This document shows positions 2,986 to 59,792 of a stretch of DNA of 64,000 bases, one piece after another. How positions within the stretch are numbered: the stretch's first letter is position 1; each line of letters starts with the position of its first letter. Origin of the DNA: an uncultured Candidatus Saccharibacteria bacterium. GTDB taxonomy: Bacteria > Patescibacteriota > UBA1384 > DTJR01. The notes under the pieces are model-generated. The model was given only the letters and a program-made list of their open reading frames with translations, did not search any database and had not been told where the DNA came from. The position numbers and the translations under genes were made by a program. The stretch lies in NCBI GenBank assembly GCA_964487045.1, contig CAZAOT010000003.1, positions 3,730-67,729 of the forward strand. The letters run 5' to 3'.

Positions 2986-4080
2986 CTACTCATTTCTAAG
3001 TGGCATCACGATATATTTAAAGCTACCGTCTTCCTTATCGAGAATCATACCTGGATTGAGTGCGCCAGAAAGAGCAAATACAACCTCCTCGCCGGTAATA
3101 GAACTCAACGAGTCGAGGATATACTTTGCATTAAATGCGACGACCAGCGGACTCCCCTTGGTAGAAGCGGGAACATGGCTTTCGGCGTCCCCTGTCTGAG
3201 AAGATATCGCCGAAATCACAAGACCACTTTCGGAAGCGGCTATTTTAATATTTCCGCCACCTTCTCGGGCAAAGATATTAGCCATTTTAATAGCCTCGGA
3301 AAACTCATTCTTATTCATGATTGATTCATGGACAAATTCCTTAGGGATGATCTGCTCGTAATCAGGAAAGGCGCCATCTATCTGCCTGGATAAAAATTCA
3401 ATCTCGGCAAATCTAAACTGGACCTGATTCTCACCAGCTGAAATTTCTACTTCAGTCTTATCAGAAGGCAAAATTCTAGAGAGCTCTCCGATCGTGCGCT
3501 GTGGGATAACAACATCAAGCTCGGACGCGACACCAAGCTCTATCGTTTTTTCGGCTAAGCGATAACTATCGGTCGCAACCATCACCAAGTTTGTACCGAT
3601 TGTGCGAAAGAGTATTCCGGAGAGAACCGGGCGGGTCTCATCCAGTGCGGCGGCAACTATAACAGAGAGGATGGCAGACTTTAGCACCTCAGCAGGTACG
3701 ACTACTTTCTTATCTGTTGCAACCTGTGGAATAATCGGAAATTCTTCTGCCGAGATTCCTTTGATCGTTACGTGTTGGCGGGCACCTTTGACACTGATAT
3801 CTGCCCCCTCACTAATTAGCTCCAAAGTCTCATCAGTGATGGTTGAAATATAGTCTAGCAAGGTCCTTGCAGGCACGGTGATCGCGCCTTCCTCATCTAT
3901 CTTAGCGCCAATTCTTTCGACTATGGCTGCCTCTAAATCAGTCGATGCGAGCTTAAGCCTACCTTTGTCTGAGGCAATTAGTACATTGCCCAAGACCGGC
4001 AGAGTCGCTCTTTGTTTAACCATTCTCGATACAGTCTGCAGCCCCTTAAGCAGGTTTTCACGCTTTACACTTATCTTCAT
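2986..4080 (-). CDS. dnaN: DNA polymerase III beta sliding clamp
   Basis: 364 aa, three-domain clamp length. Position directly downstream of dnaA. Confidence 0.9.
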   Translation of the reverse strand: MKISVKRENLLKGLQTVSRMVKQRATLPVLGNVLIASDKGRLKLASTDLEAAIVERIGAKIDEEGAITVPARTLLDYISTITDETLELISEGADISVKGARQHVTIKGISAEEFPIIPQVATDKKVVVPAEVLKSAILSVIVAAALDETRPVLSGILFRTIGTNLVMVATDSYRLAEKTIELGVASELDVVIPQRTIGELSRILPSDKTEVEISAGENQVQFRFAEIEFLSRQIDGAFPDYEQIIPKEFVHESIMNKNEFSEAIKMANIFAREGGGNIKIAASESGLVISAISSQTGDAESHVPASTKGSPLVVAFNAKYILDSLSSITGEEVVFALSGALNPGMILDKEDGSFKYIVMPLRNE

Positions 4081-5873: not shown

Positions 5874-5902
5874 TTGATCTCTAGTTGCGATTCTGTTATA
5901 TT
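5874..5902 (+). promoter_or_regulatory. Sigma70-like promoter of GC-rich cassette A (TTGATC-N17-TATATT)
   Basis: -35 at 5874-5879 and -10 at 5897-5902 with a 17-nt spacer. Followed by SD GAGGAGG (5930-5936) and ATG at 5943. Confidence 0.5.
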
Positions 5903-5942
5903 CATACGATTGCAATCCAGAATACTCTCGAGGAGGGTTGTC

Positions 5943-6779
5943 ATGTACATTGGCAGACAGATGTATGATGAATCTGGTCTGAAGCTTTTGCCTGAGGTTG
6001 AGCTATGCTTTGGGCCGAGCGGGCAGTGGGCTGATCTAGCTAAGCTGCTTATTCTTTACAGCGAGCATGACCCCTATGACGCCTGGCGTCTCTGGTATCG
6101 GGCTATCGCTACCCAGCTTAGCTTTGAGCAGATGCTTGGGCTCGCTGGTCAGATGATAACGATCGCTACTCTTCGCCTCAGCAATGGCTTTGGCTCTTTC
6201 CCGGCTCCTCCTTCCCAAGATGCCCTAAGTTACTACCTGAGGGGTTCGAGGGTCTTGTCGGCTGCTGTCCGTCGGCTTGCTGCCTGGCAGTTCGACGGAG
6301 AAGGCAAGTACAGCTCTTTCTATGTGTTGCAGGATAAGATGCAGCTTGAGACCGCGCAGACTATCTATCGTCTGCCGTGGGATATGCCCTGCAACTGCCC
6401 GGAGGATCTCTCTGAAATTCTCGGGCAGTGTTGCGATGCTCTCGGGCGTTACGGTGTGGGTCCAGTCGGTAATCGTGAGTTCACGATCAATGTGCCTTTA
6501 CCATACGCTACCTGTACGACGCAGGTATCTTTCCAGTTTTACGCCACTGATGCCAACTGGATGCTTCATGGCGAGATTCCTTGCCCAGATATTGGTGTGC
6601 CAGAGATCTGGGTGAAGTCATCTGATCATGACGACGCACCTGAGTTGATCAGCTTCGGGGGTGGCAATCTCGCTGGCCTGGTGGCCCGCCTCGGTTTGCA
6701 TCCTACGATGACTCGGACGCAGATCAAGGACATTCTCTATACCCGCGTAGCTTACAGCTCGCATCCGCATAAGAGGTGA
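5943..6779 (+). CDS. Orphan protein A1 (278 aa) in a GC-rich island; no recognisable family
   Basis: Long ORF in markedly GC-rich DNA. SD-supported ATG at 5943 (the listed ORF begins at TTG 5874, which is the -35 box). Cys-rich patch CNCPEDLSEILGQCCD. Confidence 0.55.
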   Translation: MYIGRQMYDESGLKLLPEVELCFGPSGQWADLAKLLILYSEHDPYDAWRLWYRAIATQLSFEQMLGLAGQMITIATLRLSNGFGSFPAPPSQDALSYYLRGSRVLSAAVRRLAAWQFDGEGKYSSFYVLQDKMQLETAQTIYRLPWDMPCNCPEDLSEILGQCCDALGRYGVGPVGNREFTINVPLPYATCTTQVSFQFYATDANWMLHGEIPCPDIGVPEIWVKSSDHDDAPELISFGGGNLAGLVARLGLHPTMTRTQIKDILYTRVAYSSHPHKR

Positions 6780-6784
6780 GTGCG

Positions 6785-7345
6785 ATGCGCATACATAGAG
6801 AGCATTTTGCTCGTTTGGCGGCAGGCTCGGGTGCCGAGTGGCCGTTCGAGTGCAATGAGTGCGACTTGGAGCGTTTACTCTACGCGCTCTGGCATGACAA
6901 GATGCCGCTTGACCGCCAGCGGGTGCGTGAAATCCTGCCTCGTCTTCTGGTCGAGAATGTTCCTCTTGAGGGATTGATCCGACTTGGCTACGAGTCGCTG
7001 GCGCAATTTGCTCATGCGCTTTACATCTACTACTCGCAGGACATAGCGATCCTCGCCCAGCGGGAATTCGAAAGTAAGAATGGTCGAGTTGGCGCCCTCG
7101 GCGAGCGATTCGAGCAGATGAGCAATGTGGTGAAGCGCTTGCAGCATCTTGTGCTTGTGATGCCTAAGCTGATGGCTGAGACCCACGGTAGAGGTGGTGA
7201 AGGCGCGTTCATGATTACTCGCATGATTGCTTTGGCTCCACTTGATGGTCTTCAGGAGATGCTCGGCGAACATGCTGGGCATTGCTATGACTGGACCTAC
7301 TTCCAGACTCTCAGTCGGGTGATTGATGAGTCGAAGGCAAGTTAG
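6785..7345 (+). CDS. Orphan protein A2 (186 aa), co-transcribed with A1
   Basis: ATG at 6785 preceded by AAGAGG. Starts 5 nt after the A1 stop. Same high GC. Confidence 0.5.
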   Translation: MRIHREHFARLAAGSGAEWPFECNECDLERLLYALWHDKMPLDRQRVREILPRLLVENVPLEGLIRLGYESLAQFAHALYIYYSQDIAILAQREFESKNGRVGALGERFEQMSNVVKRLQHLVLVMPKLMAETHGRGGEGAFMITRMIALAPLDGLQEMLGEHAGHCYDWTYFQTLSRVIDESKAS

Positions 7346-9478: not shown

Positions 9479-10204
9479 CTAGTTAGATCGCATTTCGGCT
9501 ACCACGGTGCAAATCTGCTCGGGCGAAGGAGCGTGAGGCAGCTTGATCCGACCGAGGCAAAGCTCAGCTGTCTCGTCGATCCTCCCGCCCAAAAGCGTGG
9601 TCGTCTCGAGGATAGCCCTTGCCCCCTTGGGCAGCCACTCGTCCTCGAGCTTCTCGATGAAGCTGACCGCACCATCCTCGTCGAAGATCCCTCCTGGCTC
9701 TAGCTCGCAAAGCATTCCGATGAAGAAGTCCCCAGGCATAAGCTTCCAGAGTTCCTCGCGGAGCTCTGTTACCGACAAGACGAGGTGACACTTCGCGAAC
9801 ACCTTGCCGAGAAGTACATCTCGAAGTCCTTCGCCGTACATGCCAGAGCCGCAGAAGCTAGCGATAAGCGCTGTGCCACTTGGCGCGCCATGTGCCAAAT
9901 GAGGCGCTAGGATGTCCCCAAAATGCATATACGTATCGTGAGAAACAGCCTTGCCGGCAAGCGCCCGTCTAGCATCTTCGAACGAATGAGAGGTGACGAT
10001 CCTGTGGTCGTAGCAGCTTCGTGGAATGATCGGGATCCAACCGCTTAGCTGAACAGGAGCCATCTTTGGGTCTGGTGGGATTGCCCAGATGTAGAGCCTT
10101 TTCCCGCACGAGCAGCCCTGCCCGCTGTAGAAGAAGTCGTCATCCATCTCGGCCTTGATCGCATCGCGCTGCTCGCTGCGAATCCGTGCTCGGCTATGTG
10201 GCAT
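9479..10204 (-). CDS. Orphan protein B (about 241 aa from the SD-supported ATG; the ORF extends to 10252) in a GC-rich island
   Basis: GC-rich ORF. GGGAGGG SD 11 nt upstream of the ATG at 10204. No family recognised. Confidence 0.45.
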   Translation of the reverse strand: MPHSRARIRSEQRDAIKAEMDDDFFYSGQGCSCGKRLYIWAIPPDPKMAPVQLSGWIPIIPRSCYDHRIVTSHSFEDARRALAGKAVSHDTYMHFGDILAPHLAHGAPSGTALIASFCGSGMYGEGLRDVLLGKVFAKCHLVLSVTELREELWKLMPGDFFIGMLCELEPGGIFDEDGAVSFIEKLEDEWLPKGARAILETTTLLGGRIDETAELCLGRIKLPHAPSPEQICTVVAEMRSN

Positions 10205-10275
10205 TTTTCCAGCCCTCCCTCTGTAATGTGCGATTTGCGAAAAGAGTAGCACATCTGTAAGATAAGATCTAGTCT

Positions 10276-10863: not shown

Positions 10864-10926
10864 CAGTCAGTTGCGAACACAAGATCAAATCCCATCTTTT
10901 TGAGATTTTTTCGTATGGGTCTAGTA

Positions 10927-10953
10927 TTGACTTTCTGCGAGATTTGGTATAAT
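10927..10953 (+). promoter_or_regulatory. Promoter of cassette C (TTGACT-N15-TGgTATAAT extended -10)
   Basis: -35 at 10927-10932 and -10 at 10948-10953 with TGG upstream. Confidence 0.55.
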
Positions 10954-11037
10954 ATAACCAGTTCCGAGGGAACCTTGAATGATCGCAGAACGCGGCTGGT
11001 ACCAGCCGTAATCGCTAACTCCCATGGGAGGGAGATC

Positions 11038-11415
11038 ATGCCGCCCAACAGTCGCAAGGCAAGCGCCCCGCGTTATAGGGGGTGCGTTGCTCAGCACAAG
11101 GCGTTCGATGATATCTGCGCTCAGATGACGCCTGCCGAGAGGCAGGAGTTTCTGATCGGCATCGGCGTATGCATCGGCTCATCTGTCGAAGCTAGTCGCA
11201 CACGCTCGATGGTTCGCAGAGCAACAAAGGGGCTAATCGCTGACGGGTTTCATGTCGAAGCTGCCAGCGTATTGGTCTCGAACGGGATGAAGAAGGACGC
11301 ACTCGCCGCGGTCAAGGTAGGTCTTGCCTGTCACCCGAGCAAGAACGCCCAGGACCTCGAGGTCCGCATCCGGCTTGTCGAGTTGGAGAGCGCAGCCGAA
11401 AGGCTACCGTCGTGA
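11038..11415 (+). CDS. Orphan protein C (125 aa) in a GC-rich island
   Basis: SD GGGAGGGAG then ATG at 11038. The listed ORF start at 10900 lies upstream of the promoter. No family recognised. Confidence 0.5.
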   Translation: MPPNSRKASAPRYRGCVAQHKAFDDICAQMTPAERQEFLIGIGVCIGSSVEASRTRSMVRRATKGLIADGFHVEAASVLVSNGMKKDALAAVKVGLACHPSKNAQDLEVRIRLVELESAAERLPS

Positions 11416-34059: not shown

Positions 34060-34105
34060 ACTTTTGCAAAGCAAAGAGGCCACCTCTATAGGAGCAGGTG
34101 GCCTC
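34060..34105 (-). terminator. Minus-strand intrinsic terminator of GC-rich segment J
   Basis: Plus-strand hairpin GAGGCCACCTCTATAGGAGCAGGTGGCCTC (34076-34105). On the minus strand it is followed by TTTGCTTTG. Confidence 0.5.
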
Positions 34106-34142
34106 GATGTAACGGCTCAAGCGAGAGGGCATTCTCGCGAGC

Positions 34143-34475
34143 CTAGATGAGTCCGGCGCCACGGAGGGCGGCCTGGACTGCGGCATCTGCCGCAGCCTGG
34201 CGTCCAGCTCCGCGGCCGAACCTGGCCCAGTTATTGACGACCGTGTTGGTCGCCAGATCGAGCTGGGCCGGCGTGGGGGCGGGGACTCCTGCGGCCGTCA
34301 GGGCCGCGGTGATAACCGTGAGCTGCGCCGGCGACGCTACAGCCGGAGCCGCCGGGTTAGCGCCCGGAGCTGTCGGCATGGTAGCCGAGCCAGCCGGACG
34401 GTTGCCCGTCACGTACGTGGTCGCTCCCGAGGGAGCGATCGTGAGGGCACTGGCCGGTCCCTCCATCATGCCCAA
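34143..34475 (-). CDS. GC-rich segment J: Ala/Pro/Gly-rich 110-aa ORF (coding status uncertain, no SD) or ncRNA
   Basis: About 70% GC by eye. Minus-strand TTGACA at about 34531-34526 matches the cassette promoter family. 5' hairpins. ATG preceded by the palindrome GCCCAATTGGGC, no SD. Confidence 0.3.
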   Translation of the reverse strand: MGMMEGPASALTIAPSGATTYVTGNRPAGSATMPTAPGANPAAPAVASPAQLTVITAALTAAGVPAPTPAQLDLATNTVVNNWARFGRGAGRQAAADAAVQAALRGAGLI

Positions 34476-34556
34476 TTGGGCAATGGAGGTGCCGAAGGCC
34501 GGCCCGTCGTTAGGCCGGCGCCAAATGTCAAGATTCGGCGCAATAATAATGAATAA

Positions 34557-34637
34557 AGAAATCCGAAATCCGAAAAAATTCCTAAATAATCAATTTGATT
34601 TTTTGTATTTGTTATTTATTCTTCATTCTGGTTTGAT
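34557..34637 (+). repeat. AT-rich intergenic repeat, copy 1 (about 90% identical to 37481-37553)
   Basis: GAAATCCGAAATCCGAAAAAATTCCTAAATAATCAATTTGATTTTTTGTATTTGTTATTTATTCTTCATTCT. Confidence 0.7.
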
Positions 34638-37480: not shown

Positions 37481-37553
37481 GAAATCCGAATAACGAAAAA
37501 ATTCCTAAATTATCAATTTGAGTTTTTTGTATTTGTTATTTATTCTTCATTCT
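37481..37553 (+). repeat. AT-rich intergenic repeat, copy 2
   Basis: GAAATCCGAATAACGAAAAAATTCCTAAATTATCAATTTGAGTTTTTTGTATTTGTTATTTATTCTTCATTCT. Confidence 0.7.
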
Positions 37554-37586
37554 TTTTTCTGGCTTGGTTATTATTCATGCCCAGTC

Positions 37587-37615
37587 TTGACATTTAGTGT
37601 CTTTTATGGTATATT
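37587..37615 (+). promoter_or_regulatory. Promoter of cassette D (TTGACA-N17-TGgTATATT)
   Basis: -35 at 37587-37592 and -10 at 37610-37615. SD AAAGGGGTG before ATG 37684. Confidence 0.6.
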
Positions 37616-37683
37616 ACTTCGATCGCTTGGAACTGGATTTTATCCAGCCGGCGACGCAACTACCCTAAAGGGGTGTTTCATTC

Positions 37684-38832
37684 ATGGCTAAGATGATCGG
37701 GATTGTTCGGTTGGGTGGGGAGCATCTCGTCGCTGAGGACTCAACGTTCCTCATCGGCGAGCTCAACAATGGTGACGAGGTATTCGTCGCCGGTAAGCCC
37801 CGTGGCACTGCCCGGCGCGTCGCTGAGACGCTCGGCAAGGACCAGGTCTTCCTGGTCTGCGAACTGGTCGAAAACGACCGCGGTGGCCAGAAGTATCGGG
37901 TCACCGAACCCGTGCAGGTGCTCGGGCTGGCCGAGAGCTTCGGCTCCCGCAACATGCTGCCCGCGGCTCTGCCCGGGCGCTTCGAGGGTTGGCTCGACAT
38001 GCTCCGCGACGGCAAGTTGCGGAAGGTGCGGGTCCCCGCCGATCTGGCTCTGGAAGGTCCCGCCCTCGCCCCCTCGCCGACCACCCCGCCGACCGCCCTG
38101 GGCGCCGCGCTCGGGAAGGCCGGCATGAAGGCCACCGAGGCGCCCGCCACCGAGGCGCCGCAGTCCACGCTGATCGACAGCGCGGGTGCGGCCAAGATCA
38201 TCGCGGAGGGCATCAAGGCCCTCCGGCCGGTCACGAGCGCTCTCGTCGTTACCGACCAGGAGCGCGACGCGCTCCAGGAGGCGATCGGCGCCCGCTTCCC
38301 GCGGGCGGCATTCGACTCCAGCCAGGCTGCGTCGGCCCAGGCCAACATGGAGCGCGTGCTCCAGGACGTACAGCAGCGCCGCCGCGAGGCGGCCGAGCAT
38401 TTCTTCGCCGAACTCGCGTCGTTCTGCGAGGGCAATATGGCCCTCCAGCTCGGCGTCCTCGGTGGGGATCTGCCGACGCTCAACGAGAAGGGGAACCCCA
38501 CCTGGGGCTCCACTCTCGACGAGCTCCTCGGTACCATGTCCACCGCCGAGGCTGCTGTTCTCGGCGCGACCGATCTGCCGGGCTACCCCGAGCCGGACTT
38601 GGCCCAAGGTCGTGGCGATGACCAGCCCGAACCCCCGCCGGATCCCGAGGGCGACAAGCCCGAAGACGAAGCCGAGGCCGCCACGGCCGAGGAGGGCGTC
38701 CACCCCATCGCCGCTGCCCAGGAGGGTGGCGTCAAGGCTGAGAAGGCCGCGCCCGCGACTACCAAGAAGCCGGCGGCGCGCAAGCCTCGCAAGACGGCAG
38801 CCGAGAAGGCCGCGACCGGCACCGACGGCTAG
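37684..38832 (+). CDS. Orphan protein D (382 aa), very GC-rich, with a C-terminal Ala/Pro/Lys/Glu-rich histone-H1-like tail
   Basis: About 65-70% GC by eye. All six frames are open around it, so only the promoter/SD-supported frame is called. Tail ...KAEKAAPATTKKPAARKPRKTAAEKAATG. Confidence 0.5.
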   Translation: MAKMIGIVRLGGEHLVAEDSTFLIGELNNGDEVFVAGKPRGTARRVAETLGKDQVFLVCELVENDRGGQKYRVTEPVQVLGLAESFGSRNMLPAALPGRFEGWLDMLRDGKLRKVRVPADLALEGPALAPSPTTPPTALGAALGKAGMKATEAPATEAPQSTLIDSAGAAKIIAEGIKALRPVTSALVVTDQERDALQEAIGARFPRAAFDSSQAASAQANMERVLQDVQQRRREAAEHFFAELASFCEGNMALQLGVLGGDLPTLNEKGNPTWGSTLDELLGTMSTAEAAVLGATDLPGYPEPDLAQGRGDDQPEPPPDPEGDKPEDEAEAATAEEGVHPIAAAQEGGVKAEKAAPATTKKPAARKPRKTAAEKAATGTDG

Positions 38833-38878
38833 ATCCTAGCCGGTTTCGTCCAGTAAGGAGGCTGGACACATGAACTCT

Positions 38879-38918
38879 AGAGGCGCGACGTCATTTGACG
38901 GAGCGCCTCTTTTCTTTG
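38879..38918 (+). terminator. Intrinsic terminator of cassette D
   Basis: GAGGCGCGACGTCATTTGACGGAGCGCCTC hairpin followed by TTTTCTTTG. Confidence 0.6.
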
Positions 38919-40213: not shown

Positions 40214-40401
40214 GAAAGAATCAAGGAGAAAAGATGTAGAATTGTCAAATTAACAATTAAAAATGTCCAATCAATTATTAAATTCATAAATTAATAATTT
40301 GATTAATTTTCACATTAAGACATTTTTTAAAACATTCAACATTGTTAATTTGGAAATTCGTAAATATCTATTGTTAATTTATTAATTTTTGGCCCATATA
40401 C

Positions 40402-40430
40402 TTGACTTTTGGGGCGTTTTGTGGTATATT
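40402..40430 (+). promoter_or_regulatory. Promoter of cassette E (TTGACT-N17-TGgTATATT)
   Basis: -35 at 40402-40407 and -10 at 40425-40430. About 150-nt structured leader with hairpin CCCTCGC-TTGA-GCGAGGG. Confidence 0.6.
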
Positions 40431-40586
40431 ATCTTGTTCACGATTAGGAGGGGAAAGATCTCTTGGTCGAGAACGTTGACAATTCGAACCCCCTCGCTTG
40501 AGCGAGGGAGACATGCCGGACGAGGTCTCATCCTCCTCGTCATTGCAGCAGCGCTGCCGGTAACCATCACCTAGGAGGTGATTCGG

Positions 40587-41597
40587 ATGAGTAAGATCGA
40601 CCCGCGTTTCGATGGTATGGTTGTGGATTCTGTAGAGCAGGTCGGGACTGTCCCGGCTGAGCTCATCGCTGCGTTCCCGGAGCTCGGCGACGCAATGTAT
40701 TGCGTCGTTGAAATAGCCCGTGGGCAGCGCCGCAACAAGTATGTTGCGGCTGTCCGGCGCCAGTGCGCAAGCGCCGACTTCCGGGACGGCAGTGGTCCAG
40801 GCCACTGCCATTGGTTCTTTGATGCGGACTACAAGTCCGTCAAGGAGCTCGTTCGCGCGACGCGGTGGGCTATGCCCGCCGTGACCGACATGAGCACGCG
40901 CCAGCTCGGCGCACTGCTCGTTGCTGCGATCCGTCGTGGCAACTGCGAAATCGTAGTTGGCGATGTTGTTGTCGCTAGCTACGGAGGCTTCCTCGAGGAG
41001 GCCCTTCGCGAAATGGTTCGCCGCTCGCAAGCGGCGAACAGCCTCAAGGACGAAGCCAGCCGTTGGCTGGCGCAGCACTTTGAGGACGAGTCCATCGCCG
41101 TTGATGGCGGCTGGACTCACCCGGCCATTGACTGGCTGGCGTGGGTATTCGCCAGTCGTCAGCGCGAAAGCGCATTTGGCGATCTCGGTGGGGAGGCGAA
41201 CCGCTGGGTTCGGGAAACGCCCATCACGGGCGGACCTGAGCAGTGGGGCTGCCTGCGGGGTTTGCCCGCCGTACGCACCGAGGTCCGGGCATACGAAGAT
41301 CGCGGCGCGGAGCCGCAGATCTACCTCCCCAACGGGGAGAATTTCTCCGTCCGCCGCCTCATCGGCGGTGGGTACTTCCGCCTCGCGGAGGATGGGGTCT
41401 ACGACCTCTTCCTGCGCCGCGGGGCGGCGGAGATCGGTGACAAGGGCCTGATGTGGGCCCGCGTCACTGAGGACGGAAAGGTTGTCGCGGCGGTCGATCC
41501 GCTGCACAACTATGGGGGTTTGGGCGAGTTTGCCTATACCCCCCTGATGGGGCGCCTGCACAAGGCTCTCCAGGCGGCCGTTGCTGCCGAACAGTAG
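40587..41597 (+). CDS. Orphan protein E (336 aa) in a GC-rich island
   Basis: SD AGGAGG (40573-40578) then ATG at 40587. No family recognised. Antisense 395-aa ORF judged spurious. Confidence 0.5.
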   Translation: MSKIDPRFDGMVVDSVEQVGTVPAELIAAFPELGDAMYCVVEIARGQRRNKYVAAVRRQCASADFRDGSGPGHCHWFFDADYKSVKELVRATRWAMPAVTDMSTRQLGALLVAAIRRGNCEIVVGDVVVASYGGFLEEALREMVRRSQAANSLKDEASRWLAQHFEDESIAVDGGWTHPAIDWLAWVFASRQRESAFGDLGGEANRWVRETPITGGPEQWGCLRGLPAVRTEVRAYEDRGAEPQIYLPNGENFSVRRLIGGGYFRLAEDGVYDLFLRRGAAEIGDKGLMWARVTEDGKVVAAVDPLHNYGGLGEFAYTPLMGRLHKALQAAVAAEQ

Positions 41598-41603
41598 GAA
41601 GCA

Positions 41604-41660
41604 CAGGCCGGTACCGAGTTATCCGCAAGGATGACAAGGTGCCGGCCTTCTGCATTTTAT
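41604..41660 (+). terminator. Intrinsic terminator of cassette E
   Basis: AGGCCGGTACC...GGTGCCGGCCT hairpin followed by TCTGCATTTTAT. Confidence 0.55.
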
Positions 41661-41690
41661 AAACAAGAAACCTTTTTCGACCTTTCGAGC

Positions 41691-41719
41691 TTGACATTTG
41701 GCGGTATTTGTGCTATATT
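41691..41719 (+). promoter_or_regulatory. Promoter of candidate ncRNA E2 (TTGACA-N17-TGcTATATT)
   Basis: -35 at 41691-41696 and -10 at 41714-41719. Shares the 14-nt CTTGACATTTGGCG with the J promoter. Confidence 0.55.
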
Positions 41720-41725
41720 ACTCTC

Positions 41726-42082
41726 TTATGCTTCTTCAAGAAGAGTCAATCTTTTCTGAAGGGATATAAGTTCCCGATTCCAGTGGAGGGCCATCAGGAG
41801 AATGGCAGGTCGTCGGAAACGATAATCTAGCTGCTCCTCCAGTCTCGCGTTGAGACTGGAGATTAGGCCGACGCGGATGCGCGCCGGCTGTCACAGCCGA
41901 GGCTGAAGCAACCCATGAGGATTGACAAGTAATCCGACCCCGGTCGAAAGGCCATCAACAAGGTCGGATCGAGATCATGAACCATGGTTGATCATCAGCC
42001 GATTCGGCACAAAGGGAGACGCTTGCTTGACGCTTGCATCTCCCTTTTTCGTTAATCTAAAAAAGCCCTTTCGGGCTTTTCT
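41726..42082 (+). ncRNA. Candidate structured non-coding RNA (about 360 nt), promoter-to-terminator, GC-rich
   Basis: No ORF over 23 codons. Multiple perfect hairpins (CCAGTCTC..GAGACTGG, GGGAGACG..TCTCCC). Ends in terminator AAAAAAGCCCTTTCGGGCTTTTCT (42056-42082). No RNase P, tmRNA or SRP signature motifs found. Confidence 0.35.
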
Positions 42083-42151
42083 CACTACTTAGATCCTTCG
42101 ACTTTCTGAATTGCTAAATTATCAGAAGCGCTCAGGATGACCGTCCCACGG

Positions 42152-42712
42152 TCACTTAACTCGCTCTACGTATTCACCGGTTTGAGTGTTCACCTTCACT
42201 AGATCACCAGCTTTTATAAAAATCGGAGCGTTAATTCTCGCCTTTGTCTCTAATGTAACTAGTTTAGTAACGGCGCCTGCTGAATTGCCCTTGATGGCAG
42301 GAGGGGCTTCTGTAACTTCAAGATCAACCTTAAATGGCAGGCTGATATTGATCGGCTTATTATTCCACGAAAGCACATCAACCTCAACGCCTTCTTTGAG
42401 GAAATCTGCTTGAGTGCCAAGTTGCTCCTTGGAAAGCTCAAATTGCTCAAATGTAGCAGAGTCCATAAAATTAAATTTATCGCCTTCCCGATAGGTAAAA
42501 GAAGCTTTGGAGCGGGACATTTGAGCTTCATCAAACTTGTCGCTTCCCTTAAAAGTTAGGTCAAGAATCGCTCCCGTAAGAAGATTTTTTATCTTAGACC
42601 TAAGGATTGCGCCGCCTCGGCCAAGCTTTGAGTGTTCACGAAAAATTAATTGGTGAGGGGCACCATTATAAATCAAGAATGTTCCTACCTGTAAATCACT
42701 GATATTGAGCAT
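42152..42712 (-). CDS. efp: Elongation factor P
   Basis: 186 aa. KLGRGGAILRSKIKNL KOW region. Three-domain EF-P length. Confidence 0.9.
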   Translation of the reverse strand: MLNISDLQVGTFLIYNGAPHQLIFREHSKLGRGGAILRSKIKNLLTGAILDLTFKGSDKFDEAQMSRSKASFTYREGDKFNFMDSATFEQFELSKEQLGTQADFLKEGVEVDVLSWNNKPINISLPFKVDLEVTEAPPAIKGNSAGAVTKLVTLETKARINAPIFIKAGDLVKVNTQTGEYVERVK

Positions 42713-52970: not shown

Positions 52971-53624
52971 TTGCATGGAGGAGAGAGATTGAAGAGTGCC
53001 ATCTATATGCATCACTTCGCGCAGTCTGTTCTGCTGAAGCTTGGCGATCAGATCGCCGAGTTGCTTGATCGAGAGCTTCAAGCGTTGGTCGGATGTGCAT
53101 CAGATGTTCAGAGCCTGCGTGATCAACTTCAGGGTATGGTCAAGGTTAACCGTCACGAAGTAGAGCTGCCAGTTGTACCCGGGAATGAGAGCGTCTACCG
53201 ATGTGCGGGTTACAAGCTGGACGTACTTCCGGCACACGTGCAGTCGTGTCTTGACCTGCATGACGAATGCTCTGCCAGAGTAACCGAACGTATCTGTGAG
53301 TCGCTCCAGTCAATCCAGATCGGCTGTCCGCTGATCAACTACGCCCATGGCCAGCTGTACTTAGCTTGCGACACCGCCGGCTCCTGCGTGGAGTTGGCAA
53401 GGCTTGCTGTCGCACTCGACAGGAACTTCCCAGCGACGCACCAAACCCTGCCACTGCTAGCCGGGGATGAATGGCCTTGGCTGATGTGGGATAATGGCAA
53501 TCTGCACATGAACCATCCCTTCTCGGCCAGGGGACTATGGAAGCTTCAGGCGCTGGCCAAATCCATCAGGGAAGAGCTAAGGCCTGGGATGTATGGATAC
53601 GCCAGAGCCGGCGGCACACGCTGA
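52971..53624 (+). CDS. Orphan protein H1 (about 205-217 aa; start at TTG 52971 or ATG 53007), GC-rich, Cys/His-rich
   Basis: Long ORF in a GC-rich island. Terminator hairpin GGGGACA...TGTCCCC + ACCTTTTTTA at 53661-53700. Confidence 0.45.
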   Translation: MHGGERLKSAIYMHHFAQSVLLKLGDQIAELLDRELQALVGCASDVQSLRDQLQGMVKVNRHEVELPVVPGNESVYRCAGYKLDVLPAHVQSCLDLHDECSARVTERICESLQSIQIGCPLINYAHGQLYLACDTAGSCVELARLAVALDRNFPATHQTLPLLAGDEWPWLMWDNGNLHMNHPFSARGLWKLQALAKSIREELRPGMYGYARAGGTR

Positions 53625-53715
53625 TGAAGGCAGGTAGACTATCTGCTTACTCAAGGGGACATCCTCCAGACGGAGCTTGTCCCCACCTTTTTTATATTTA
53701 TTTCGGCCCAATACA

Positions 53716-53744
53716 CTTGAATTTTTATATACAAATTGCTATTA
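53716..53744 (+). promoter_or_regulatory. Promoter of H2 (TTGAAT-N17-TATTAT)
   Basis: -35 at 53716-53721 and -10 at 53739-53744. SD GGGAGG at 53830-53835. Confidence 0.45.
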
Positions 53745-53840
53745 TTTCTTCTTCTGTAATAGGTGGTCATTGACATTTGTATGGAGAAGAAACACCCGCA
53801 TCGACTTTGGTCGACGGGTTCAAGAAACGGGAGGTATACG

Positions 53841-54377
53841 ATGGTGGATCTTGCGGTTGTGAGTCTTGACCTGCGTAAGCAGGCCATGCTGAAGCTTCAA
53901 GATCTAGGTGAAAGCGAGATTCACTTAGGTCTTGTCAGAAGCTTTGTCGAAAGGCTTCATCATTCTGTCCCAATGACCTTGCTCGAGCGCGATCGGCTTG
54001 TTGACGCGCTTGGGGGGTTGCATGCAAGCCGTATAGACTTTCGCTCCTATGTGTCGCCGCGTCGGCTGGTCGCATTTCTTGATGTCAGTTTGCAGAATCT
54101 ATCCCAGGATGATCTGCCGGATTCGGTCAATGTGCATGGGATCGACTGGCTATGTGAGCAGGCAGAAAGCTGCGACCAGGCAGAATCAGAAGTGGACGTT
54201 CTCGATGCTGAGGCTTTTGCGATCGACCAGCCGAAGGTCGGTTCGGCAAGCGCCATGACTCACGCTGAAGCGCGGGTCAAAGTAGCTGAGTACCGAGAGG
54301 CTGCTGAGGCGCTTGAGCGGCAGATTCCGCTCGATCTTCAGGTGGGTCACATCGAGGACGGAGACGAAGACAAGTAG
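53841..54377 (+). CDS. Orphan acidic protein H2 (178 aa), GC-rich
   Basis: ATG at 53841 after GGGAGGTATACG. No family recognised. Confidence 0.45.
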   Translation: MVDLAVVSLDLRKQAMLKLQDLGESEIHLGLVRSFVERLHHSVPMTLLERDRLVDALGGLHASRIDFRSYVSPRRLVAFLDVSLQNLSQDDLPDSVNVHGIDWLCEQAESCDQAESEVDVLDAEAFAIDQPKVGSASAMTHAEARVKVAEYREAAEALERQIPLDLQVGHIEDGDEDK

Positions 54378-58774: not shown

Positions 58775-59792
58775 GAGTGTAGGATGATCGCTAAGATCGT
58801 TCTACGCAGAACGTGGAAAGGGGTTTTGCTTATGATTCTCTGTGGTTCCATCGCCATCGTCTGACAACCGGCGCCTCTAACGATCTCACGATCGTAAGAG
58901 AAAGGGGATCTAGTGATCAGAGCGAGTCCGTAACCACGCCTTTCACATCGCCGGCTGAAATGCCGGCCCTGACCAAACCCAAGCTGTACCAATTAGTCGC
59001 AAAGTTGCTGATCGACGGACTTCTCTTGCGGCGAAAGCCGCCCCGACCGGCCAATGGGCCAGAAGACAAGAGGCTGAAGAAACATGCGTGCACGTTGTCG
59101 CGGCCACACCGTCGTATCCACCTTCTCCTTCGAGATCGCGCTGGTTCTCTAGGGAAACTCGCAAACCCGGGGATGCAGATCTCTGAAAGTCTCTGCACCA
59201 GCCATCTTGCTAGAACCCGCAAGGGCCGACTTCAAACGCTCCACCCTAACAAGGGACGGGAAAGCTGGCCAATCCGCGGCGGGGGACGCCGGCGCGCACT
59301 AGGCCGTAAGAGCTAGGGATGCGCGGCGGCTAAACGCCCGCCAAGCCCGAGTCGAAGGACCCGGAATGGAGCAAGTAGCCAAAGCAGTGACGGAGCGGAC
59401 ATAGTTCGCGCTCCCTATATCTGCTTGCGCTGGCATTGCCAAGGCACGCCGAGCCTGCGTGGCTCACAGAGTGCTTCATGGCGAGAAATGCATGCCCATT
59501 CCGGCTCTGCAATCCTACACATTAGGACGATGGGGTTGCGCCTGGAAAAGCATCAGGGTGTGATGCGAGCGAGGCTGATCGCTGGAATGGCCCTGGATAG
59601 AGGGTTTTGGCGAGGATGTCTTGCGGTGAGGCTGGTCCCTTCGGGGACTCCCCAGCCGGTGGCTGGGGAGCTAGTCTACTCATTTCGCCTTGGTGCGTTT
59701 GCCCAGGCGGGATTTTCCATAGGGCTCGAGTGTTTCACTCGGGCCCAAGTTGTTTTATAAAAGCAAAAAAGTGCCTCACGGGCACTCTTTTT
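58775..59792 (+). ncRNA. Candidate large structured ncRNA Ib (about 1 kb), GC-rich, promoter-to-terminator
   Basis: No ORF longer than 167 codons in about 65% GC DNA, and the longest is Arg-rich and GTG-initiated. cUUCGg tetraloop hairpin GGTCCCTTCGGGGACT. Hairpin CCCCAGCC-GGT-GGCTGGGG. Strong terminator AGTGCCTCACGGGCACT followed by CTTTTTT at 59766-59792. Confidence 0.35.

Follow-up and report, generated by a model that had tools for sequence, protein, structure and literature searches.

A candidate structured non-coding RNA encoded beside efp in a Berkelbacteria-like lineage of the candidate phyla radiation

Features of the interval between the M16 peptidase gene and efp

We analyzed 64,000 nucleotides (nt) of DNA from an uncultured Candidatus Saccharibacteria bacterium (GenBank assembly GCA_964487045.1, contig CAZAOT010000003.1, forward-strand positions 3,730 to 67,729; this whole stretch is hereafter the window), with attention to a segment between an M16 peptidase gene and efp which an earlier, sequence-only reading had put forward as a candidate novel small RNA (sRNA), possibly linked to the protein encoded just upstream (protein E). 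The flanking genes are core genes, namely ndk, the M16 peptidase gene, efp, rpsR, ssb, rpsF, ddl and a gene for an NYN-domain protein. The named relatives of the encoded EF-P, with approximately 80% identity, come from metagenome-assembled genomes (MAGs) of Berkelbacteria, which belong to the candidate phyla radiation (CPR). The window has a GC content of about 43% with GC-rich islands; the GC fraction of the RNA region is 0.52–0.56, compared to 0.62–0.69 in the gene for protein E and about 0.42 in the flanks. The RNA region was 100% identical in four compared independent (Logan) assemblies of the locus, and protein E and EF-P have likewise been recorded from an NCBI contig of 232,796 bp. The sequence is thus genuine DNA and not an assembly artefact.

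The segment is headed by a sigma-70 promoter on the plus strand (41691–41719), consisting of TTGACA, a 17-nt spacer, an extended −10 TG and TATATT. It matched 11 of the 12 consensus positions and was the top promoter-like site within 38–46 kb. Its assignment to a promoter family, already proposed in the sequence-only reading, was borne out by the recurrence of the pattern in the window and in related loci. In its extended form (TTGACW-TTTRG-N9-TG-N-TATAWT, at most two substitutions), which includes a conserved spacer, the pattern occurred three times in the window, at 37587, 40402 and 41691, and each copy was followed by sequence that is GC-rich relative to the genome. The spacer of the 41691 copy holds the conserved TTTGG...TTTGTG, and transcription of the RNA would begin at about 41726–41728.

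At its 3' end, the segment carries an intrinsic terminator on the plus strand (42014–42053), in which GGGAGACG...CAUCUCCC is followed by UUUUU and then by a conserved tail, CGUU(AAU). A second hairpin, AAAAAGCCC-UUUC-GGGCUUUU (42059–42080), with GCCC/GGGC pairing and A/U-rich flanks on both sides, lies outside the conserved RNA. It is probably the terminator of the convergent efp (42152–42712, minus strand) and a back-stop for the RNA; a comparable hairpin adjoins efp in two related loci, L080 and L073, the latter of which is devoid of the RNA. Since the RNA has its own terminator (hairpin at 42014–42049) and the second hairpin probably serves efp, the transcript most likely spans approximately 327 nt, from 41726 to about 42052, and ends at the first terminator, rather than having the length of about 360 nt originally estimated.

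With regard to coding potential, the longest open reading frame (ORF) with an ATG start has 23 codons, as stated before; this limit does not hold when GTG and TTG starts are admitted, where ORFs reach 56 amino acids (aa; 41922–42092). No ORF was conserved among the homologues described below. Across the four homologous sequences, every frame on both strands contained at least one stop, most frames contained stops of several kinds, and the longest stop-free stretch was 91 codons. Similarities in tblastx were found on both strands and in several frames, as is expected of nucleotide-level conservation.

The 4227 models of Rfam 15, among them those for RNase P, signal recognition particle (SRP), 6S, transfer-messenger RNA (tmRNA), group I/II introns, riboswitches, raiA, ROOL, GOLLD, OLE and HEARO, gave only two tRNAs in the window when gathering thresholds were applied. 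A sensitive cmscan of 41400–42300 to E ≤ 10 yielded only chance-level matches of at most 19 bits, Rfam gave nothing at the homologues in L010, L075 and L080, and ARAGORN detected no tmRNA in the window. The sequence-only reading had likewise found no P4 motifs of RNase P, tRNA-like ends of a tmRNA or domain-IV motif of SRP RNA. A tmRNA was also rejected because its two ends would pair into a tRNA-like domain with a T-arm, beside a tag reading frame, whereas the 5' end of this RNA folds into a local hairpin and its 3' end is an intrinsic terminator. A cis-regulatory leader or riboswitch was discarded as well, given that the next gene downstream, efp, lies on the opposite strand with two terminator hairpins in between. 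Finally, neither a Type III toxin-antitoxin RNA (ToxI-like) nor a CRISPR array was retained: tandem repeats were absent from the RNA at scores of 30 or above, and no paralogue was found within the RNA or elsewhere in the window.

Fold and conservation of the RNA

We fetched efp loci from related genomes and assemblies and found the RNA in three further species, all Berkelbacteria-like; every copy is located immediately 3' of efp and is convergent with it. The first, in a Berkelbacteria MAG from Lac Pavin (L010; efp DNA 71% identical to that of the window, nhmmer E 1e-11), has the same promoter, its own 5' hairpin and its own terminator. The second, in a Logan assembly (L075; 73%, E 3e-22), likewise has the promoter, 5' hairpin and terminator. 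The third, in two Logan assemblies (L080/L081; 74%, E 6e-12 over the core and 3' part), consists of the core, the 3' domain and the terminator only; it directly follows the stop codon of a 132-aa GC-rich ORF with a family promoter and hence is the 3' untranslated region (UTR) there. The promoter upstream of the RNAs in L010 and L075 is the same down to its spacer positions, and is also found upstream of GC-rich ORF cassettes. A covariance model built from three sequences (R3) did not reveal any additional copy, either in the window or among 30 loci, and an exact-pattern scan of a metagenome collection with the consensus of the 5' hairpin gave no match. Further, phage and plasmid records showed no DNA similarity to the RNA locus, and viral scans with RNA and promoter patterns produced either no match or four chance matches devoid of nhmmer similarity.

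The 360 nt from 41726 onwards folded with a minimum free energy (MFE) of −143.3 kcal/mol, compared to −110.9 ± 5.8 kcal/mol for dinucleotide shuffles (z = −5.57), and none of 100 shuffles was as stable as the RNA. The homologues were also more stable than their shuffles, with z-scores of −4.16 (L010), −6.07 (L075) and −3.26 (L080). The several perfect stems that had been noted from the sequence were confirmed as inverted repeats of 10 bp (41837–41846/41852–41861), 8 bp (41932–41939/41962–41969), 8 bp (42061–42068/42073–42080) and 7 bp, together with a 12-bp stem of 92% complementarity (42011–42022/42036–42047).

Comparison of the homologues showed a common architecture, on the plus strand of the window throughout, in which a 5' hairpin is followed by a three-way junction that has one conserved strand of 15 nt, then by a branched GC-rich domain of variable sequence, and finally by the terminator. 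The 5' hairpin, H1 (41726–41769; UUAUGCUUCUUC.AGAAGAG-UCAAU-CUUUUCUGAAGGGAUAUAA), has a stem of about 20 bp, begins at the proposed transcription start or at most 2 nt from it, and is predicted in all three promoter-bearing homologues. Its identity between species is 80–82%, as against 71–74% for efp DNA; in the three-sequence alignment, 98% of its cells were paired and two pairs had changed on both sides (A-U to G-C).

The core three-way junction (41789–41869) is made up of a closing helix, P1' (41789–41795 with 41861–41869), an interrupted hairpin with a GAAA loop, P2 (41797–41837), and a hairpin of 9–10 bp, H3 (41837–41861). The sequence of P1' differs in each species (GGCCAUC/GAUuaGGCC, CCUUA/UAAGG, UAAAU/AUUUG and UGUGAUC/GAUCACA), and H3 measures 9–13 bp across species with an almost wholly different sequence in each. 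The 3' strand of P2 is formed by the conserved 15-nt motif ACGAUAAUCUAGCUG (41819–41833), which reads ACGAUAAUCUAGCUG in L075, ACCAUAACCUAGCCG in L010 and AACAUAAUCUAUCCG in L080. In the window and in L080, the junction was itself the MFE fold (z −4.2 and −4.3, respectively); in L075 and L010, it lay no more than 2.1–2.4 kcal/mol above the MFE upon constrained folding. This comparison rests on (constrained) folding because a single-sequence model of the junction alone (R2) was too weak, scoring 22 bits in L075 and at noise level in L010 and L080.

Downstream of the junction, the variable branched domain (41870–42013) measures 146 nt in the window and 170–206 nt in the homologues. It includes the perfect stems 41885–41891/41893–41899 and 41932–41939/41962–41969 as well as a palindrome at 41973–41996; identity between species is only 60–69%, with many indels. 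An alignment of two sequences with MAFFT and RNAalifold was set aside, since it placed the central part of the RNA incorrectly. The RNA closes with the terminator, whose classification as a classic one was upheld: the hairpin GGGAGA...UCUCCC with five U residues is kept in all homologues, its stem sequence co-varies in L010, L075 and L080, the tail UUUUUCGUU(AAU) is conserved, and identity between species reaches 71–89%.

Covariation was assessed with a covariance model built from the window sequence alone and covering H1, P2 and H3 (R1), which recovered L075 with 45 bits (E 7e-10) and L010 with 37 bits (E 1e-7). In the resulting alignment, 92.5% of cells were paired and 10 pairs had changed on both sides, compared to 4.5 ± 1.6 in shuffles (none of 500 reached this value) and 0–3 in slid controls. 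Seven of the 10 pairs of H3 were compensatory. With homologues in several species and pairs kept through compensatory changes, the RNA appears, at the level of sequence comparison, to be a structured non-coding RNA (ncRNA), and its description as a candidate novel RNA without a family match has been strengthened.

Promoter cassettes and the efp–M16 hotspot

Upstream of the RNA lies cassette E (40402–41658), in which a promoter of this type is followed by a leader of 150 nt, an ORF of 336 aa and a long hairpin terminator (41603–41658, plus strand; GGCCGGUACC...GCAA...GGUGCCGGCC and a U-rich tail), which is a boundary element outside the RNA. The ORF has a GC content of 62–69%, and its values at the three codon positions are coding-like (0.71/0.48/0.75). 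Protein E had no match in Pfam or among PDB sequences and no convincing fold match; with 19 distant relatives, all metagenomic, it is a rare protein and not a strict orphan. The Nop domain of Pfam was absent from E and 17 aligned homologues even at E ≤ 1, and the AF2 model (predicted local distance difference test score of 83) showed no Nop-like match. As modelled, E is a separate folded protein with an unmatched fold and no RNA-binding signature.

The RNA had been suspected of a functional link to protein E, and read-through from that gene had been named as an alternative source of it. Neither idea was upheld. The terminator at 41603–41658 and the strong promoter behind it separate E from the RNA in the window. 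Synteny showed no RNA–E link, because L010 has the RNA and no E, with a MazE-like small ORF upstream instead, and the ORFs upstream in L075 and L080 encode different proteins without Pfam match (215 aa and 132 aa); the RNA was thus shown, as judged from gene order, to be independent of protein E. In addition, the terminator module of cassette E, with its GCAA tetraloop, recurs nearly unchanged at 3662–3700 of locus L031 (30 bases exact under one R code), where it sits behind an unrelated STIV_B116-like ORF and where the RNA is absent. Terminator modules seem to change places between cassettes, either along with their payloads or separately from them.

The third unit with the same promoter (37587–38900) contains a 382-aa ORF of 68% GC. 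In related loci, family promoter sites were located in L010 (6014), L031 (4272), L068 (1086), L075 (3163 and 2065) and L080 (4452), driving either an RNA or an ORF; the one exception to the pattern is a site in L066 (1761) which precedes AT-rich sequence. The payloads are mostly ORFs without Pfam match, one STIV_B116-like ORF, one pilin-like ORF with an N_methyl motif, or the RNA. Homology across cassettes extends to the promoter including its spacer, the putatively stabilising 5' hairpin and the long hairpin terminator.

The spacer between efp and the M16 peptidase gene varies widely among relatives whose EF-P is about 76–90% identical. It is empty in L029, L030, L071, L074, L078 and L082; in L009, L032 and L039 it holds two small ORFs on the minus strand that were judged by eye to resemble a toxin-antitoxin pair of the Doc/Fic type, and in L072 a PIN_3 gene. 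GC-rich ORF cassettes occupy it in L031, L033, L068 and L073 (family promoter seen in L031 and L068), and the RNA, with or without an ORF cassette, in the window, L010, L075 and L080; the spacer of L010 also holds the MazE-like ORF. The site behaves as a hotspot for accessory genes.

Phage morons are autonomous promoter-gene-terminator units inserted between genes. Like them, the RNA unit has a strong sigma-70 promoter and an intrinsic terminator of its own around the payload, is flanked by core genes, has a base composition unlike that of its surroundings, and occurs in some close relatives but not in others at a single hotspot. Unlike morons, which by their classical definition reside in a phage or prophage genome, it carries an RNA and not a protein as payload, its neighbours are core genes rather than prophage genes, and no match was found in phage records or among viral contigs; further, the promoter, 5' hairpin and terminator modules of the cassettes are homologous across payloads and species. 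The RNA is thus an accessory element, and we infer that it is one payload among related, autonomous units of promoter, payload and terminator with a likeness to phage morons.

Several other observations were made on the cassettes. Those with unrelated ORFs share a 5' leader hairpin (GTTaCGATT..GAGGG..AGATCTC..GTCGAG), found at 40437–40475 in the window and at approximately 3128–2975 in L075, 4418–4267 in L080 and 4240–4175 in L031, and the cassettes of L075 and L080 have a similar leader of about 170 nt though their ORFs differ; the leader may itself be an RNA with a regulatory or stabilising role. A sub-threshold Rfam match to BTnc060 in L010 (8104–8270; 35.5 bits, gathering score 228.9), which lies immediately 5' of, and extends into the start of, a GC-rich 409-aa ORF without Pfam match, is probably due to chance or another structured cassette leader. 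On the minus strand at about 34075–34535, TTGACATTTGGCG, which corresponds to the −35 half of the family promoter, stands upstream of a small GC-rich (63%) ORF of about 107 codons (34470–34147) with no −10 box, and a hairpin terminator follows the ORF; the unit may represent a cassette that has degenerated or is regulated in another way. A 62-nt AT-rich direct repeat of 77% identity (34573–34634 and 37497–37558) has one copy just 5' of the cassette promoter at 37587 and the other upstream of a bPH_2-domain gene. More ORFs without Pfam match (5874–7345, 9479–10252, 10900–11415, 47695–48168, 52971–54377 and 58813–59316) are dispersed among the core genes yidC, a Ham1-family gene, a type II secretion system (T2SS) ATPase gene, rplS and dnaX, mostly in overlap with GC-rich islands, and may be further cassettes of foreign origin whose promoters have diverged. 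When the cassette terminators were inspected by eye as possible integron attC sites, neither GTTRRRY core sites nor an integrase was seen.

Two observations concern the edges of the interval. The spacer between the M16 peptidase gene and the promoter of cassette E (40214–40400), with about 20% GC, contains nested inverted repeats (40239–40266/40332–40359 and 40240–40257/40370–40387). At the other edge, a conserved hairpin in the efp 3' UTR (42090–42150; ...GGTCATCCTGAGCGCTTCTGA...TCAGAAAGTCGAAGGATCT on the efp strand) is also present downstream of efp in L080, L076, L072 and L073, including relatives without the RNA, and resembles repetitive extragenic palindromic (REP)-like repeats.

Competing explanations and biological meaning

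The explanation that we favour, with a probability of roughly 0.6, is that a stand-alone gene in this segment encodes a highly structured, non-coding RNA of approximately 327 nt, which would found an uncatalogued family so far confined to one Berkelbacteria-like CPR clade. The RNA would be an interchangeable payload of lineage-specific, autonomous, moron-like cassettes that appear built for high and stable expression. The strong promoter, the 5' terminal hairpin and the strong terminator together suggest an abundant, stable RNA, in which H1 would act as a stabiliser against attack from the 5' end. Our best guess at its function is action in trans as a protein-binding scaffold or decoy and not as a short seed-pairing sRNA, because conservation falls on a folded junction instead of an unpaired seed, and because L080 has kept the core by itself, as part of an mRNA 3' end.

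Several points weigh against this explanation. The transcription start and the 3' end were deduced from the sequence alone, and the trans-acting, protein-binding step is a guess. Four species in all carry the RNA, the covariation count involves only three independent sequences, and fitting their alignment to the model biased it towards the structure. Conservation is poor over the 3' half, which could not be aligned reliably by structure profile, so that a common fold there is only tentative. L080 lacks the promoter and H1, and the status of a stand-alone gene is thus not universal. Finally, the close relatives with an empty spacer do without the RNA, with efp and the M16 peptidase gene directly adjoining, and other loci hold toxin-antitoxin modules or ORF cassettes at its site, which makes the RNA dispensable.

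The competing explanations are taken up in descending order of confidence: a cis-acting module, a decayed ORF cassette, a guide RNA, a housekeeping RNA and a small-protein messenger. Instead of being an RNA gene, the element might act in cis on transcripts or DNA as a 3' end module of the cassettes, either as an mRNA 3' stabiliser or as an insulator against antisense transcription from the very strong cassette promoters into the essential convergent efp; the promoter and H1 of the window would then be secondary additions. Such a role would suit L080/L081, where the core directly follows an ORF stop codon and has neither promoter nor H1, as well as the constant position of the element between cassette promoters and the 3' end of efp and the terminator with its tail being the most conserved part after H1. 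However, in three of the four copies the element is preceded by a strong promoter of its own and begins with a 5' hairpin whose conservation exceeds that of efp DNA, ORF cassettes without the element (L031, L068 and L073) end beside efp with an ordinary hairpin, and a 300-nt junction fold far exceeds what termination needs; we consider this explanation unlikely. The sRNAs derived from 3' UTRs are comparable in that the core and terminator of L080/L081 form an mRNA 3' end and the RNA body apparently stems from its own promoter or from an upstream transcript, whereas the window, L075 and L010 have a dedicated promoter and 5' hairpin. It is very unlikely that the segment is a decaying GC-rich protein-coding cassette, a pseudogene alignable only through recent spread among genomes. 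The promoter shared with ORF cassettes, the raised GC content and a weak three-base GC periodicity in one frame (0.51/0.42/0.62) would be expected of one; nonetheless, the homologues have no frame in common and stops in all frames on both strands, the helices were kept through two-sided changes, fold z-scores of −3.3 to −6.1 are unexpected for a decaying ORF, and divergence like that of efp indicates that the element is not recent.

The 3' domain, which varies between species, and the TIGR-Tas systems of CPR, of which one array type consists of variable stem-loops (PMC12045711), bring to mind RNA-guided systems, in which the RNA would serve as a guide or array (TIGR stem-loop array, IS110-type bridge RNA or TnpB/IscB omega RNA) for a partner protein that is either E or encoded elsewhere. 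TIGR arrays are made of tandem units with two 8–12-nt spacers flanked by box C/D motifs, with dual repeats or periodic stem-loops, and are adjacent to a Tas protein with a Nop domain (PMC12045711). The RNA is like them in its occurrence in CPR, its non-coding nature, its variable hairpins and its position beside small proteins of unassigned family. Unlike them, it has no tandem repeats; its variable domain is branched, with only one or two unpaired runs of at least 8 nt, rather than composed of periodic units with two box C/D-flanked spacers each. Moreover, Nop, RuvC, HNH and IS110 domains were absent from E and the tested neighbours, the confident model of E shows no such fold, and the upstream proteins differ in every species, which leaves a guide function very improbable. 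The size of 330–400 nt, the GC richness in an AT-rich genome and the strong promoter would befit a very divergent housekeeping RNA (RNase P, tmRNA, SRP or 6S RNA), but cmscan found no match above chance level at E ≤ 10 in the RNA region and none in the three homologues, ARAGORN was negative, the two ends do not pair with each other, and absence from many close relatives is impossible for an essential RNA; this explanation can hardly be entertained. Scarcely more can be said for an mRNA encoding one or more very small proteins, for instance from a 13-codon ORF at 41729 or the 23-codon ORF at about 41981. Small ORFs are present and one ATG lies 3 nt past the proposed start; however, the 13-codon ORF is reduced to 6 codons in L010 (MFLREG*) and has no ATG in L075, no peptide is conserved, and the ATG is placed inside the conserved H1 stem.

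The stand-alone RNA gene may also be set beside the large structured ncRNAs raiA, ROOL, GOLLD and OLE, which were found in long GC-rich intergenic regions of AT-rich genomes by the GC-IGR approach (PMC6429828, PMC8723152). It is similar to them in its length of several hundred nt, multi-helix junction, GC enrichment, lack of an ORF and accessory, mobile-looking context. It differs in that it matches none of their Rfam models, has a much narrower distribution, with four species so far, and is poorly conserved over half its length. A broader proposal, which we regard as doubtful, is that this CPR lineage has a modular expression-cassette system of its own, which would capture or swap foreign GC-rich genes and RNAs at a few intergenic hotspots and for which the RNA and the GC-rich ORFs, most of them orphans, would be exchangeable payloads; the RNA would then be a new class of large structured effector or scaffold RNA in an ultra-small symbiont.

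The CPR (Patescibacteria) make up a large share of bacterial diversity, and targeted literature searching yielded no description of CPR-specific ncRNAs. The locus is a concrete candidate for one, with defined boundaries, a junction core backed by covariation and a predicted abundant transcript of about 330 nt. The cassette context may matter more than the RNA itself, in that one promoter, along with related 5' hairpins and terminators, is reused before unrelated GC-rich payloads in several species, at a site where toxin-antitoxin modules otherwise accumulate. If this is true cassette exchange, it would show how symbionts with reduced genomes acquire and express foreign functions.

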